Below are positions 7,612 through 62,070 of a DNA stretch of 64,000 bases, one piece after another (position 1 is the stretch's first letter; every line of letters starts with the position of its first letter). The notes under the pieces were generated by a model that was given only the letters and a program-made list of their open reading frames with translations, did not search any database and was not told the origin of the DNA. Made by a program: the position numbers and the translations under genes. The stretch is from assembly GCA_026708965.1 (NCBI GenBank), contig JAPOTY010000024.1, forward strand, positions 20,785 through 84,784, given 5' to 3'. The DNA is from Gammaproteobacteria bacterium. Its GTDB lineage: Bacteria > Pseudomonadota > Gammaproteobacteria > Steroidobacterales > Foliamicaceae.

Positions 7612-8478
7612 TCAGGGAGCGATGCGCATGGAGAAATCGCAGGCCCGGACGTTCTTGGTGAGGTCGCCGCAGGAAATGCGGTCCACGCCGGTGGCGGCGA
7701 CGGCGGCGATGCGGCTCCTGTCGATCCCGCCTGAAGCCTCAAGGATCACATCGCGGCCCTGCCGGTCGCGCTCCCGGACCGCCGCCGCCATCTGGTCCAA
7801 GGAGAAATTATCCAGCATCACCCAGCGGGCGCCGGCATCCAGCGCTTGGGCCAATTCATCCAGATTCCGCACTTCCACGGTAACCGGGAGGCTGGCTTCG
7901 GCGGATGAAGCCGCTCGAAGGGCCGCTCGAATCCCTCCGGCGGCGGCGATATGGTTTTCCTTGAGCAGCACGGCATCGTAAAGACCCATGCGGTGATTGC
8001 TCCCGCCGCCCACGCGGACCGCATACTTCTGGGCCAGCCGCAGGCCGGGGAGCGTTTTGCGGGTATCGAGCAATTGGGCGGAGGTTCCGCGAATGGCCGC
8101 CGCCATCTCGCGGGCCCGGGTAGCCACGCCCGACAGCAACTGCAGGAAATTCAGGGCCGACCGCTCGCCGCTCAGCAGTCCCCGCACCGGGCCGCGCAAC
8201 TCGCATACGGCTTGATCCGCCGTTGCGGGCGCGCCCTCCTCGACCCGCCAGCGAACGACGACACGCTCATCAAGGGCGCGAAACACTTCCTCGAACCAGT
8301 CGCGCCCGCACAGCACGCATTCCTCGCGCGCCGTCACCGCCGCGCAGGCCTGCGCGGCTTCCGGGAGAAGCCGGGCCGAAACATCGCCGGCCCCGATATC
8401 CTCGCGCAACGCCCGCCGCGCGTCTTCGCGAACGGCGGCGAGCGGCAACTCAAGCGCGGAGCGGCTCTTGTTTCCCAT
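7612..8478 (-). CDS. nadC: nicotinate-nucleotide pyrophosphorylase (carboxylating)
   Basis: The 288-aa protein has ALREDIGAGDVSA, LDTRKTLPGLR and KENHI motifs typical of NadC. Confidence 0.9.
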   Translation of the reverse strand: MGNKSRSALELPLAAVREDARRALREDIGAGDVSARLLPEAAQACAAVTAREECVLCGRDWFEEVFRALDERVVVRWRVEEGAPATADQAVCELRGPVRGLLSGERSALNFLQLLSGVATRAREMAAAIRGTSAQLLDTRKTLPGLRLAQKYAVRVGGGSNHRMGLYDAVLLKENHIAAAGGIRAALRAASSAEASLPVTVEVRNLDELAQALDAGARWVMLDNFSLDQMAAAVRERDRQGRDVILEASGGIDRSRIAAVAATGVDRISCGDLTKNVRACDFSMRIAP

Positions 8479-8487
8479 TCCTTAGCT

Positions 8488-8531
8488 GCAAGCAGTCATG
8501 CGTCTCCCGGAAGAGGGGAGAGGGAAATGGC
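8488..8531 (+). repeat. partial copy of the palindromic element family (loop remnant GCAAGC..CATGCGT plus right arm)
   Basis: CATGCGT followed by CTCCCGGAAGAGGGGAGAGGGAAATGGC matches the loop end and purine-rich arm of the full copies. No perfectly complementary left arm is present. Confidence 0.55.
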
Positions 8532-13055: not shown

Positions 13056-13159
13056 GCCTTTCCGCGCCCCCCTCTTCCGGGAGTATCGGAGGCAGGATGC
13101 CGGAGCAAGCCCCATGGAAGGGTTGATGCGTCTCCCGGAAGAGGGGGGCGCGGAAAGGC
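13056..13159 (+). repeat. palindromic element copy E1 (28-bp perfect stem, 48-nt conserved loop)
   Basis: The arm 13057-13083 (CCTTTCCGCGCCCCCCTCTTCCGGGAG) is the exact reverse complement of 13132-13158. The loop is TATCGGAGGCAGGATGCCGGAGCAAGCCCCATGGAAGGGTTGATGCGT. Confidence 0.9.
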
Positions 13160-13213
13160 GAAGGGCAGGCAAAATCCTGCGGTGCCTCCGCGCCCCTTGG
13201 CGCAATATCCGGG

Positions 13214-14008
13214 CTAGCCGGAATCGCCGCTGGACAGCGGCGGCAATTGACCCAGATGCGCGCCGCTGTCGGCGATCAGAGTCTCGCCGGTCACCAGCGG
13301 AGCGCCTTCAAGGAACCAGACAATCACCTCGGCCACATGCCGCGGCTCGGCAACCTGCTTAAGCGGGAGGATGGAACCGGCCATATCCAGCATGCCTTCG
13401 TAGGCCGCATCGCCCATGCCGCCCTTCAGCCAGCGGGTCTGTATCATGCCGGGGGCCACGCTATTGATGCGGATTTCCGGGCCCAGCACATGGGCCAGGG
13501 ATTTGGTCATCAGGTTCAGCGCGGCCTTGGAGGCGGCATAGGGAATCGACGACGCGATGCCGGTCACGCCGCCGATGGAGGAATTATTGACCACGGCGCC
13601 GCTGCCCAAAGCCCGCATATGCGGCTCCACGGCGCGGATCATCTGGTAGGCGCCGACCACGTTGACCGCGTAGATATCGAGAAAGTCCCTCTTGTCGATG
13701 CCGTGAAGATTGGCGAACGGATTGAACTTGGTCCGCCCGGCGTTATTGACGAGGTAGTCGATCCGCCCCCAGGCATCCATAGCGGCCGCCGCCAGCGCCT
13801 GGCAATCGGCATCCTCGGACACATCGCCGCGCACCATCCTTGTTTCGGCGCCTGAGGCCTCGCAGCGGTCAGCGGTTTGGCGCGCCTCCTTCCCGCTGCG
13901 CGTGTAGTTCACCACAACATTGCAACCGCGGGCCGCCAATAACTCGGCGGTTGCCGCGCCGACGCCTGTGGCCGATCCCGTTACGATGGCCGTTTTTCGC
14001 TCGTTCAT
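13214..14008 (-). CDS. SDR-family oxidoreductase
   Basis: It has the TGSATGVGAA (TGxxxGxG) and YAASKAAL (YxxxK) motifs. The start was trimmed to the ATG at 14008 (MNERKTAIVTG). Confidence 0.85.
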   Translation of the reverse strand: MNERKTAIVTGSATGVGAATAELLAARGCNVVVNYTRSGKEARQTADRCEASGAETRMVRGDVSEDADCQALAAAAMDAWGRIDYLVNNAGRTKFNPFANLHGIDKRDFLDIYAVNVVGAYQMIRAVEPHMRALGSGAVVNNSSIGGVTGIASSIPYAASKAALNLMTKSLAHVLGPEIRINSVAPGMIQTRWLKGGMGDAAYEGMLDMAGSILPLKQVAEPRHVAEVIVWFLEGAPLVTGETLIADSGAHLGQLPPLSSGDSG

Positions 14009-29579: not shown

Positions 29580-29655
<76 letters not shown>

Positions 29656-30369: not shown

Positions 30370-30721
30370 ACGCGAACGCGGGTTCAGCCTTGCCGAATGC
30401 CTGCTGGCGGCGGCGATCTTCAGCCTCGGGCTGCTCGGCGCGGCAGCGATGGTCACGGAACGCGTGCGCGAGACCCGGGCGGCGCACAGCTACTTCCTGG
30501 CCGGCATGCTCGCCGAAGACCTTGCGGCGCGCATCCGGGCCAACCCGCAGGCCGCTGCCGGGAGCGATTACCAGAGCTGGCAGGCAGAGGCCGCAAGGCG
30601 CCTGCCCGGCCTGCAATGCGCGGTCACGCCCGCAGGCGGCGCATCGGCCTTCCGCTTGGAATTGAGGTGGCCGCTCAGCTCGGAGGACTCGGGGCGCCTA
30701 GTGGTATGGCTGGGCCGCTAG
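30350..30721 (+). CDS. pilV: type IV pilus minor pilin PilV (short)
   Basis: It has the GFSLAECLLAAAIFSLGLLG prepilin motif. The position after fimT supports the call. Confidence 0.7.
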   Translation: MNAPPGKRERGFSLAECLLAAAIFSLGLLGAAAMVTERVRETRAAHSYFLAGMLAEDLAARIRANPQAAAGSDYQSWQAEAARRLPGLQCAVTPAGGASAFRLELRWPLSSEDSGRLVVWLGR

Positions 30722-31671
30722 CCCGCATATCGCGTCAAGGGGCGGGGAAAAGCTTTGGCTGCGGGCTAGGCCGAGGCGGCGAGCGCGGGAGCAGCCTGGC
30801 GGAATTGCTTGTGGCCTTGGGGGTATCCAGCATGCTGCTTTTAGGCGTATTCGCGTCATCGCAGCAACTCCGCCACGCGGCCCGCGCGGCGGACAATCTG
30901 CACCAACTGGAGGAACGGGCGCGTTTCGTGCTGGACTTGCTGCGCGCCGATATCCGGCTGGCGGGTTTCTGGGGATTGCATGCCGATCGGCAGGCCGTGA
31001 GGCGCGGCAGCGGCGCAACGGTCCGCTGCGGCCGCGCCGATGCCACCGGCTGGGCCTTGCGGCTGACGCATCCCGCCGCGGCGGCGGATGATGCCTGGAA
31101 CCTGCCCTGCCCGCCCTTCCGGAATCGCCGCCAGCCAGGCGCGGACGTGCTCGAAATCCGGCGCGCCAGCCTCGCCACTTCCGGCGCGGATGCCCGCAGC
31201 GTCCAGATTCTGTCATCCCGCCGCGAGGCCGTGATCTTCTCCGCCGCCGCGCCGCCAACGCTGGAGGGTTCCACGGAACTTCGCGACCTGCGGGTGCATG
31301 CCTGGTACGTGGCGGCGGCCTCCAGCCGCAGCTCGCAAGTGCCGTCTCTCCGGCGCAAGACGCTGATAGGCGGCAGGCTGCTCAGGGACGAGGAAATACT
31401 TACTGATATCGAAGACCTGCAAATCCGGCTGGCGGTGGATTCCAATCTCGACGGAGCGGCCGATCGAGTGGTCGATCCCGCCGTGCCCCTGAGTGCTGAT
31501 GAGCGGGTCGTCGCAGTGCGGTTCTGGCTGCTGCTGCGAAGCGAAGCGCCTGAAACAGGCTACAAGGACCCCCGTGCCTACGCCTACGCCAACCGGCCCC
31601 CTAGGATTTTCAACGACGGACGGCGGCGCTTGCTGGTGGCGGGAAGCGAGGTGGTGGCCAATGCGCTTTGA
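30706..31671 (+). CDS. pilW: type IV pilus assembly protein PilW
   Basis: It has the GSSLAELLVALGVSSMLLLG prepilin-like N-terminus. The start was chosen at the ATG at 30706. Gene order supports the call. Confidence 0.7.
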   Translation: MAGPLARISRQGAGKSFGCGLGRGGERGSSLAELLVALGVSSMLLLGVFASSQQLRHAARAADNLHQLEERARFVLDLLRADIRLAGFWGLHADRQAVRRGSGATVRCGRADATGWALRLTHPAAAADDAWNLPCPPFRNRRQPGADVLEIRRASLATSGADARSVQILSSRREAVIFSAAAPPTLEGSTELRDLRVHAWYVAAASSRSSQVPSLRRKTLIGGRLLRDEEILTDIEDLQIRLAVDSNLDGAADRVVDPAVPLSADERVVAVRFWLLLRSEAPETGYKDPRAYAYANRPPRIFNDGRRRLLVAGSEVVANAL

Positions 31672-39699: not shown

Positions 39700-39716
39700 A
39701 GCAGCGCTTCGAATCC

Positions 39717-39816
39717 GCCTCTTTGAGCGCATTCCTCTCGTGGAAGGCGCCATCCTTGGCTCGGTTCCGCTATCCCTGCTTCAACGCTCCCACGAGAGGA
39801 ATGCGCTCAAAGAGGC
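39717..39816 (-). repeat. palindromic element copy E4 (27-bp perfect stem, 46-nt loop, inverted orientation)
   Basis: The arm 39717-39743 (GCCTCTTTGAGCGCATTCCTCTCGTGG) is the exact reverse complement of 39790-39816. The reverse complement of the loop contains AGCGGAACCGAGCCAAGGATGG, similar to the E3 loop segment AGCGGAACCAAGCCCATGGATGG. Confidence 0.85.
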
Positions 39817-44441: not shown

Positions 44442-45618
<1,177 letters not shown>

Positions 45619-45952: not shown

Positions 45953-46396
45953 TCAACTCTCCTCGCTTGCTTTATTCTCGGGCGCTTTGGCCGCCGCTTT
46001 TTTCTTCGCCGGGGTTTTTCTGGCTGCGGCCTTTTTCACCTTGCCTTTCGTGGACGGCGCCGGCGCCGCCCCGGCCTTCGCGGACGGTTCGATCCCGCCG
46101 ATCTCCAGCATAGTGAATAGCTGCCGGTGCCCCAGCGTGCGGCGATAATCCTTGCGCCGCTTGAACTTGATCACTTCGATCTTCTTCGCCCTTCCATGGT
46201 CGCAAACGGTTGCCCGCACCTGCCCGACCGGCGCCGCAGCGGTCCCGATGCGGGTCTCACTGCCTTCATCGCCGCCGATCAGCATGGCGTCGAACCGCAA
46301 TTCGTCGCCCACTTCCGCGCTGAGGCGCTCCACGCGCAAACGCTGCCCCTCGCTCACGCGATACTGCTTACCGCCGGTGCTGATCACCGCAAACAT
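45953..46396 (-). CDS. rplU: 50S ribosomal protein L21 with Lys/Ala-rich C-terminal extension
   Basis: MFAVISTGGKQYRVSEGQ.. starts from the ATG at 46396. About 44 extra C-terminal residues follow (KGKVKKAAARKTPAKKKAAAKAPENK). Confidence 0.9.
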   Translation of the reverse strand: MFAVISTGGKQYRVSEGQRLRVERLSAEVGDELRFDAMLIGGDEGSETRIGTAAAPVGQVRATVCDHGRAKKIEVIKFKRRKDYRRTLGHRQLFTMLEIGGIEPSAKAGAAPAPSTKGKVKKAAARKTPAKKKAAAKAPENKASEES

Positions 46397-46509
46397 CTGG
46401 ATTCTCCGCGACCCTATGGCCGGACCACGATTATATCCGCAACGCGTTCCATACGTCCGCTGGAAGCCAGCAGTCTGCGCGCCCGCCCGGCCCCACGCAA
46501 CGGCTGCCG

Positions 46510-46998
46510 CTAAAGCCAGCCCTCCAGCGATGCTTCCCATCCAGGCTCAGGCGGATTGCGAGGGCTTCGATGCAAGGGGTTGCGGTAATTCGAGCTCGCG
46601 CCTTGGATGGACATGACGCGCTCGCGAATCCGCCAGCCGGCAGCGGTGCGAACGAATTGATCCACGTAGCGGCCATAGATCACGGTATCCTCGCCTTCGG
46701 TCGGACTCTGCCATGCGATGAAATAACTCTCCACTTCCGCAGCGCTTTGGTCGATGGCGCGAACGTGGATATTCGAGGTGTGGTGCGAAGTGGCCCGAAA
46801 CCGCCACATCCGGCGAAGGCTTGAGCGCAGCCGGGAGCGGCCCCGCACGATGTAAGGCTCCTTCTCGCCATAAGTGACCCGGCAATCCTCGGTGAAGACT
46901 TCGCCCAGGCAATCCAGCTCCATGCGGTCGAGAATCGAGCAATAGCGATGAATCAGGGCGGATATCGCCGCGCTGTCCTCAAAGGTAAGCTGCGCCAT
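46510..46998 (-). CDS. SnoaL-like / NTF2-fold protein
   Basis: The 162-aa ORF has AAISALIHRYCSILDRMELDCLGEVFTEDC.. and GWRIRER patterns typical of SnoaL_4-type proteins. Confidence 0.55.
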   Translation of the reverse strand: MAQLTFEDSAAISALIHRYCSILDRMELDCLGEVFTEDCRVTYGEKEPYIVRGRSRLRSSLRRMWRFRATSHHTSNIHVRAIDQSAAEVESYFIAWQSPTEGEDTVIYGRYVDQFVRTAAGWRIRERVMSIQGASSNYRNPLHRSPRNPPEPGWEASLEGWL

Positions 46999-50230: not shown

Positions 50231-50307
50231 CGGGGTGTAGCTCAGCCTGGTAGAGCACTGTCTTCGGGTGGCAGGAGTCGCTGGTTCAAATCCAGTCACC
50301 CCGACCA
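50231..50307 (+). tRNA. tRNA-Pro (anticodon CGG)
   Basis: CGGGGTGTAGCTCAGCCTGGTAGAGCACTGTCTTCGGGTGGCAGGAGTCGCTGGTTCAAATCCAGTCACCCCGACCA folds as a cloverleaf. The anticodon loop is TTCGGGT. Confidence 0.9.
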
Positions 50308-61791: not shown

Positions 61792-61917
61792 GCCAGTTCT
61801 TGTCCCTTCCTTCCGGGAGTATGTGGAGCCACTGCGCGCCAATGGCTTGGCGCGCAGAGCGGAACCAAGCCCATGGATGGTCCATGCGTCTCCCGGAAGG
61901 AAGGGACAAGAACTGGC
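61792..61917 (+). repeat. palindromic element copy E3 (28-bp perfect stem, 70-nt loop)
   Basis: The arm 61793-61819 (CCAGTTCTTGTCCCTTCCTTCCGGGAG) is the exact reverse complement of 61890-61916. The loop carries an inner hairpin (CTGCGCGCCAATGGCTTGGCGCGCAG) and the conserved AAGCCCATGGATGGTCCATGCGT. Confidence 0.9.
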
Positions 61918-62070
61918 GGGATCGAAGCGACCCTCGGTGCAATATGCGGGCTGGCGGCGCTATGCTATGCTTGAGCCGTTTTCAATAAAGCGTATTCCTG
62001 AACGGGTTAAGTGGGAATACGGGTTTCAGGTAGAAGCGCCAATCGCCGAACGCTCCAGAGGTTGCTTTCC

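Follow-up and report, generated by a model that had tools for sequence, protein, structure and literature searches.

Intergenic palindromes with diverging, mutually complementary arms and a conserved loop in uncultured Gammaproteobacteria

The long palindromes found in the 64,000-nucleotide stretch of gammaproteobacterial DNA analysed here (the window) are probably best read as members of a lineage-specific, high-copy and strictly intergenic family of DNA repeats of the REP/BIME-like kind, in which the usual pattern of conservation is reversed and templating of one arm on the other (quasipalindrome template switching) keeps the pairing of the arms perfect. We infer template switching from rates and patterns of change: divergence of the stem is close to that of third codon positions, and the apical module that it carries evolves 3-5 times more slowly. 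The palindromes represent an uncatalogued repeat family in a poorly studied clade of uncultured Gammaproteobacteria. They would also provide a natural case of textbook-looking covariation for which a mutational process is a better explanation than selection for an RNA structure, which is a caution for covariation-based RNA discovery. The presence of many copies per genome makes the family a potential bacterial system in which the switching of templates between long inverted repeats could be measured.

Copies in the window and anatomy of the element

The four full copies, designated c1 to c4 (Table 1), rank first to fourth in an inverted-repeat search of the window, with 40-70 nt between their arms. 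A search of the window with the covariance model of the family recovers exactly these four, the next-best match having an E value of 0.055. Complementarity of the arms is 100% over 28, 29 and 28 nt in c1, c2 and c3, respectively, and 97% over 30 nt in c4. A preliminary description of this DNA had located four intergenic copies, c4 being inverted, at the positions of Table 1, which is confirmed. It had also assigned perfect arms of 27-29 nt to all of them; this is correct for c1-c3 and not for c4, whose longer arms include one mismatch. As single strands the four copies have folding energies of -67 to -92 kcal/mol, with z-scores of -8.8 to -11.6, and none of 200 shuffled sequences folds as well. 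The partial copies mentioned in the same description reduce to one clear case, the truncated copy of Table 1, the covariance model finding no other at E < 0.05. The arm type of this truncated copy is also present in locus L040 of the relatives sampled (see below).

Genes flank every full copy without being entered by it. Two - strand genes, for an SDR protein and for a nitronate monooxygenase, flank c1; rpmA and obg, also on the - strand, flank c2, which is antisense to them. Copy c3 is situated between two + strand genes, coding for a LuxR/MalT-type regulator and an aminotransferase, and c4 separates two alcohol dehydrogenase genes that converge on it. The truncated copy is flanked by two - strand genes, with the start of the quinolinate phosphoribosyltransferase gene (ATG at 8478) on one side and the stop codon of the neighbouring gene on the other. 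The window also holds the reading frame of rplU (45953-46540, - strand), which codes for 195 residues with the L21 domain at residues 49-150, so that the protein either has extensions at both ends or starts at a codon further in. Two tRNA genes, at 29583-29655 (-) and 50231-50304 (+), are the sole matches of the window to Rfam at gathering score.

Table 1. Palindrome copies and associated short repeats in the window, with covariance-model scores of the full copies
Feature	Position	Strand	Score	Composition or context
Full copy c1	13056-13159	+	83.3 bits, E 2.9e-18	5' arm 13056-13083; 48-nt apical module 13084-13131, with hairpin A GGC-AGGAU-GCC and hairpin B CCC-AUGGAA-GGG; 3' arm 13132-13159
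Full copy c2	45511-45618	+	108.7 bits, E 1.7e-24	5' arm 45511-45539; 50-nt module 45540-45589; 3' arm 45590-45618
Full copy c3	61792-61917	+	54.6 bits	5' arm 61792-61819; 70-nt module 61820-61889, hairpin A replaced by a longer hairpin; 3' arm 61890-61917
Full copy c4 (short-loop subfamily)	39717-39816	-	49.1 bits	arms 39717-39746 and 39787-39816, 30 nt, one mismatch; loop of ~40 nt made of two GCCA-NGGA-UGGC-type hairpins
Truncated copy	8484-8531	+		8484-8503, remnant of a loop with CATGCGT at its end; 8504-8531, 3' arm lacking its 5' partner
12-nt linker GGGATCGAAGCG	61918-61929	+		abuts the 3' arm of c3
12-nt linker GGATTCGAAGCG (same linker as GGGATCGAAGCG)	39705-39716	-		abuts the 3' arm of c4
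Companion repeat module TTGGCGCAATATCCGGGCTAG	13197-13217	+		38 nt downstream of c1
Companion repeat module CGGTGCAATATGCGGGCTGG	61935-61954	+		downstream of c3
Companion repeat module, further site	30718-30738	-		

Across the family the unit is composed of a semi-conserved left flank of ~12 nt, which differs between subfamilies, a stem of 28-32 bp and an apical module of ~48 nt. The ends of the arms are fixed, with GCC at the base and GGGAG at the top, and the stretch between them varies freely. C and T predominate in the 5' arm, where A amounts to only 6%; the element being a palindrome, this composition is the same on both strands. Of 98 copies, 77 have A immediately before the 5' arm and 76 have G immediately after the 3' arm. 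The tetranucleotide GTAG, reported earlier to precede two copies, does so in the window and is not a family trait: it is found, overlapping the start of the arm, in 8 of the 98 copies. Runs of 10-18 G abut or enter some copies at the GGGAG junction (L068 at ~3038, L079 at 836-952, L022 at ~2880) and are either real homopolymer expansions or assembly artefacts.

The commonest form of the apical module is UGUCGGCGGCAGGAGCCGCCGCCAAGCCCCAUGGAUGGGUUCAUGCGU. It features two small hairpins: hairpin A, of 7 bp, which is closed by AGGA, AGGAU, AGGGAU or AGGACA, and hairpin B, of 3 bp around AUGGAU. Both of them covary. Hairpin A is changed on both sides at 6 of its 7 pairs, the versions of its loop region reading CAGGAG, CAGGAUG or CAGGGAUG. 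In hairpin B the pairs CCC/GGG are replaced by UAC/GUA in 12-14 copies, two pairs switching together around an invariant AUGGAU-type loop, and a further variant carries CAC/GUG around AGGGAU. Variation of the module is limited to a few positions and to such compensated stem pairs. The shared CCATGG and CATGCGT motifs of the preliminary description are part of a loop that is conserved across the family, with the exception of the short-loop subfamily of c4, which has neither of them. A peptide encoded by the loop, already considered unlikely, is rejected: the loop lengths, 47-50 nt and above, allow no common frame, and translation would run on into the variable arm. Three other resemblances were dropped. 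A sigma-54 promoter in CATGGATGGGTTCATGC fits the GG-N10-GC spacing, but by eye the flanking consensus positions do not, and the likeness of ATGCGTCT to the Neisseria uptake sequence and that of the linker to the T-loop of tRNA are weak.

Two short repeats accompany the palindromes. The 12-nt linker recurs after many copies. The companion module, TTGGYGCAATATSCGGGCTAG, is found in the relatives as an inverted pair that brackets composite units (L094). The same module is also present 8-15 nt upstream of ATG starts (L019, L022) and could be a promoter-like or a terminal motif.

Range, copy number and catalogue status

One genome per species (185,579 species) was scanned for the pattern CCCATGGANGGN{2,4}ATGCGTCTCC, which corresponds to 20 bases of the loop. 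At least 95 stretches were retrieved and, among the matches listed, all belong to about a dozen related gammaproteobacterial MAGs, so that the copies expected beyond the window do exist. Among the same matches the MAGs are labelled Gammaproteobacteria bacterium or Candidatus Foliamicus, for which NCBI has an order of its own. The isolate names SB0673, RHO1, COS2 and PNGco are presumably those of sponge-metagenome bins, the record titles being silent on this point, and the host clade probably consists of sponge-associated uncultured Gammaproteobacteria. The same pattern retrieved seven stretches from a metagenome collection, all in contigs of two record sets, and had no match in a viral collection. 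Part of the complete chromosome OZ243929.1 (2.48 Mb) aligns with the window at 91-94% identity.

The DNA of relatives that was sampled is made of 8-kb blocks around the pattern matches (0.8-0.87 Mb), a small part of any genome. The covariance model R1 identifies 122 copies at E <= 1e-12 in 0.8 Mb around the listed matches, 53 of which lie within 304 kb of OZ243929.1. This substantiates the high copy number proposed before, and the density in the window (4 per 64 kb) would extrapolate to ~150 copies per genome. An inverted-repeat search that is blind to the loop sequence returned 142 long inverted repeats from this DNA; almost all are members of this family or its loop variants, including the short-loop type of c4.

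The palindromes have no match in Rfam at gathering score. Raising the limit to E values of up to 10 adds merely generic hairpin (miRNA precursor) matches far below threshold, and the absence of a family name noted earlier thus stands. A literature search on sponge-symbiont repeats, on Foliamicus and on CsrA together with REP elements yielded nothing relevant, the palindrome family not being found described there.

Pairing of the arms, rates of change and rearrangements

Alignment of many copies shows how strictly the arms are paired. There are 3320 Watson-Crick pairs among 3371 arm pairs (98.5%), the others being 20 G·T (0.6%), 7 A·C and 24 other mismatches. Changes on both sides are observed at 28 of the 29 pairs of the arm, and none of 500 shuffles reaches the observed covariation. 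The dispersed family with diverged yet compensated arms that had been proposed from the window copies is therefore found again in the full set of 122.

Divergence differs strongly between the parts of the element. Mean pairwise identity over the whole family is 57% in the arms and 72% in the loops. In 12 pairs of copies that sit at the same site of related genomes, divergence amounts to 24.0% in the arms. It is 8.8% in the 5' part of the loop, a part outside the retrieval pattern and free of its bias, and 5.2% in the 3' part, whose apparent conservation is inflated by its inclusion in the 20-base pattern. Third codon positions of the same genome pairs differ by 16% (O-J), 36% (V-J and O-V) and 31% (V/F1/OY1). 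The arm pairs that differ at the same sites comprise 34 fully compensated double changes and 17 one-sided ones, 7 of the latter being traced to a single chimeric copy. Note that arm identity in the deep same-site pairs (~62%) is near the family background of 57%, and these may include replacement of one copy by another instead of drift in place.

If the two arms mutated independently at the observed rate, about one third of the pairs would be expected to be mismatched at the deeper distances. If selection alone purged the mismatches, the arms would change far more slowly than neutral sites. Neither such a load of mismatches nor an arm rate far below neutral is seen, which argues that one arm is copied from the other. 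According to the mechanism proposed, one arm would repeatedly template its partner during replication or repair, by quasipalindrome template switching or by intra-palindrome conversion, such that a change in either arm would be erased or copied across to the other. The same process would flip the loop. Template switching between inverted repeats is known to homogenise their arms and to invert the spacer, reversibly (PMC8604942).

A flip of this type is found at an orthologous site. The flanks of loci L041 and L095 can be aligned on either side, their arms are homologous, and both contain the same rare variant of the loop (20-nt insertion), but facing opposite ways; this is the one clean loop inversion among ~13 same-site comparisons. 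Classification of 111 copies by gene context, based on gene calls from a crude GC3-based caller, gives 33 sense, 38 antisense, 29 convergent and 11 divergent positions. The orientation of the loop is random relative to the neighbouring genes and its conservation is equal in the four classes. Comparison of loop orientation with position and local GC skew along OZ243929.1 is at most suggestive, at the two ends of the sampled range, the skews of 8-kb blocks being noisy. The near-neutral rate of the arms, their almost complete Watson-Crick pairing, the loop flip and the random orientation together argue that the covariation of the arms is a mutational signature and not the product of RNA-level selection. 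The preliminary description had taken the compensated arms as a sign of selection on an RNA or single-stranded DNA structure; the same features, with the scarcity of G·T pairs, favour DNA templating instead. Single-strand structure is supported for the two small loop hairpins only. The slower change of the loop could reflect function, exchange between copies, or both: a factor that recognises the folded single strand may keep the apical module, which is the weaker inference, and loop exchange between copies may also help to keep the loops alike.

Copies are frequently rearranged, and the rearrangements inform on the unit that is copied. Some loci, such as L008 and L034, have arms that are identical to one another, and thus what gets copied is the whole unit, arms included. 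Locus L018 (1737-2095) carries three tandem units with their flanks, whose middle unit joins the 5' arm of one type to the 3' arm of another and points to unequal recombination within loops; the orthologous site of a relative has a single unit. Loci L034 and L087 share the same arms with different types of hairpin A, from which exchange of loops between copies follows. Three loop-plus-3'-arm repeats are present in L016 (1380-1800), the orthologous cluster of L053 (4700-5100) being a nested pair. These two orthologous clusters are positioned directly upstream of a gene whose product starts with MPHDILVVEDE (response-regulator-like by eye).

In arrays of solo 5' arms (L053, 1260-1500; L093, 1560-1700) each arm is followed by the 12-nt linker, here aYGCTTCGATTC, and a full element is found at the end. 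The linker of these arrays, as in nested clusters, appears to be the remnant of the loop end of an outer copy, so that new copies would arise inside older ones. The loop of L060 (346-431) is itself palindromic, with an antisense hairpin-B part, hairpin A and a sense hairpin-B part, as would be expected if template switching had taken place around hairpin A. Head-to-head pairs of copies also occur, as do nested composites of 280-330 bp, which are found repeatedly with identities of 92-96%.

Alternative explanations and relation to known systems

The most concrete candidate role for the loop is the binding of its transcribed sense strand by a CsrA/RsmA-type protein, a proposal that is weaker than the templating of the arms and is put forward from the sequence motifs as a lead, not a finding. 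Published features of CsrA/RsmE sites are the CsrA consensus RUACARGGAUGU, an ANGGAN hexaloop on a short stem (~4 bp or less), the CAGGAUG repeat of CsrB and a bridging distance of 10-63 nt between sites (PMC7652899). On one strand of the palindromes, the GGA strand, both loop hairpins present GGA in loops that read A(N)GGA(N), at a distance of 21 nt in the 48-nt consensus loop, which is within the bridging range. The hairpin B forms CCC-AUGGAU-GGG, UAC-AUGGAU-GUA and CAC-AGGGAU-GUG agree with the published site features, and the hairpin variant ACAGGGAUGU matches the SELEX core ACARGGAUGU exactly. Over all helices the non-Watson-Crick pairs of the GGA strand are G·T in 31 cases and A·C in 9, which hints that this strand matters as a single strand. 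Against the lead, it applies to one strand only, yet about half of the copies between co-directional genes are antisense; the loops fold equally well in either orientation, csrA is absent from the 0.87 Mb sampled, and no promoter is evident for the elements. An extension of this lead, to which we give little credence, is that the genomes of the clade could hold more than 100 self-perfecting, flip-flopping palindromes, each with a two-site CsrA/RsmA-binding module, that would form a dispersed, orientation-switchable Csr sponge or regulon, replacing or standing beside CsrB/RsmZ-type sRNA genes, with template switching setting the strand transcribed at each locus. If the GGA hairpins do bind CsrA, this would be a new architecture for Csr control.

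The explanation by templating has to be weighed against two others that invoke the transcript. The whole element could be a structured non-coding or cis-regulatory RNA whose long stem and two GGA hairpins are under RNA-level selection, with transcripts that would bind a dimer of CsrA/RsmA and serve as a sponge spread over the genome or as local regulators, perhaps once RNase III has cut the perfect stem. Covariation of both small hairpins, the fit of motifs and spacing to CsrA and RsmE sites, the slower change of the loop relative to the arms and the prevalence of G·T (20 in the arms and 10 in hairpin A) over A·C (7 and 1, respectively) among the non-Watson-Crick pairs of the GGA strand agree with it. 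So does the presence of at least two GGA on that strand in 127 of 130 loops, with none on the other strand in 100 of the 130, a count that is partly circular because GGA number set the orientation. However, G·U amounts to just 0.6% of the arm pairs, far below what is usual for tolerated RNA helices, sense copies are not in excess of antisense ones, the antisense copies are not less conserved, and the loop is inverted at an orthologous site. The folding energy of the loop does not differ between sense and antisense, giving the sense no advantage, Rfam has no match even at E values of up to 10, and tblastn with E. coli CsrA found no csrA in the 0.87 Mb sampled, which is a small part of any genome. 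Selection at the RNA level on the complete element is, for these reasons, unlikely.

Alternatively, the stems could act as orientation-independent hairpins at transcript ends (terminators or 3'-end stabilisers, as REPs do in E. coli), the loop being conserved only by exchange between copies. Such a role, which we hold to be quite unlikely, would account for the enrichment of copies after gene ends (convergent sites outnumbering divergent ones, 29 to 11) and for a palindromic build that gives the same stem from either strand, and loop exchange is seen in the L018 chimera and in L034 compared with L087. Against it, the 3' arm is not followed by a U-tract, one copy is inside the rplU-rpmA-obg cluster, and the confinement of loop variation to few positions and compensated pairs is more like constraint than pure homogenisation.

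Two further explanations involve a transposase. REPINs have a cognate RAYT gene, which the repeats usually flank. A REPIN-like element mobilised in hairpin form, as a single strand, by a RAYT (Y1/HUH) transposase with its gene at another place in the genome is improbable, in spite of several shared features: copies are numerous, extragenic, depleted between divergent genes (11 of the 111 classified sites) and able to form hairpins, they build tandem and inverted clusters, and identical arms are present at different loci. The module, with its pair of hairpins on one strand, is also reminiscent of HUH recognition sites. The GTAG motif is rare, the arms are not conserved REPs, a single arm not being itself palindromic, and conservation follows the opposite pattern to that of REPINs (PMC3116915). 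The best tblastn match to E. coli RayT in 0.87 Mb enriched for copies has an E value of only 0.99, this being a single, insensitive query. The doubt expressed earlier about a REP/RAYT origin is justified by these observations. A MITE, that is to say a deletion derivative of an IS moved in trans by a transposase that binds its terminal inverted repeats, would share the length of 100-130 bp, the inverted terminal arms, the intergenic position and the multiple copies. We regard it as very improbable: the supposed terminal repeats are the least conserved part of the element (57% mean identity), no target-site duplication is visible at the presence/absence sites, where the intergenic flanks are too diverged to align, and the 0.8 Mb holds no multi-copy transposase gene or IS and no multi-copy repeat of transposase size, only composites of 250-390 bp being repeated.

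Arm-to-arm templating, which we prefer to these four explanations, has its closest counterpart in the quasipalindrome template switching described in the literature, with which the palindromes share near-perfect arms despite fast change and the inversion of a spacer at an orthologous site (PMC8604942). The latter is known from isolated short repeats with arms of 7-16 bp and spacers of a few nt, whereas the palindromes have arms of 28-32 bp, spacers of 48 nt, and number over 50 per genome. Template switching is a mechanism and does not define a family of elements. The CsrB and RsmX-Y-Z RNAs also present GGA in the loops of short hairpins, as do the CAGGAUG and ACAGGGAUGU versions of the module with their two sites ~21 nt apart. 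They are, in contrast, the products of single-copy sRNA genes that have their own promoter and terminator and 5-22 sites each, while the palindromes have two sites per unit, more than 50 dispersed units in random orientation, no evident promoter and no Rfam match.

Among repeat families, Correia elements and bacterial MITEs are likewise intergenic inverted-repeat elements of ~100-150 bp that can form hairpins in transcripts. Their terminal repeats are conserved and accompanied by target-site duplications, neither of which is seen here, where the arms are the most variable part in place of terminal inverted repeats matching an IS. In REPINs two conserved REP ends, which carry a GTAG-type motif on their 5' side, enclose a spacer of lower conservation, and the tandem clusters that they form extend over the flanks (PMC3116915). 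The palindromes resemble them in being high-copy, extragenic, hairpin-forming elements of roughly 100 nt with compensatory changes along the hairpin and tandem clusters (PMC3116915), all 122 copies in 0.8 Mb being intergenic. They differ from REPINs, and from REPs with their conserved sequence and 5' GTAG or GTGG, in that the ends are variable and the centre conserved, arms being 24% and loops 5-9% divergent at the same sites.

BIME-1 or RIP elements of enterobacteria are built from two inverted REPs of the conserved type around a central motif that binds IHF as a duplex. The palindromes have in common with them the inverted arms that flank a conserved, presumably protein-binding central module, and a mosaic organization with short linkers and companion motifs, represented by the head-to-head pairs, the solo-arm arrays with their 12-nt linker, the nested composites and the companion module. 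They differ in that their arms drift freely and in that the hairpin covariation of their centre suggests a folded single strand instead of a duplex site. The palindromes thus lack the defining features of REPINs and MITEs and share the lifestyle of REP and BIME elements, and the family is therefore filed within the REP/BIME kind.
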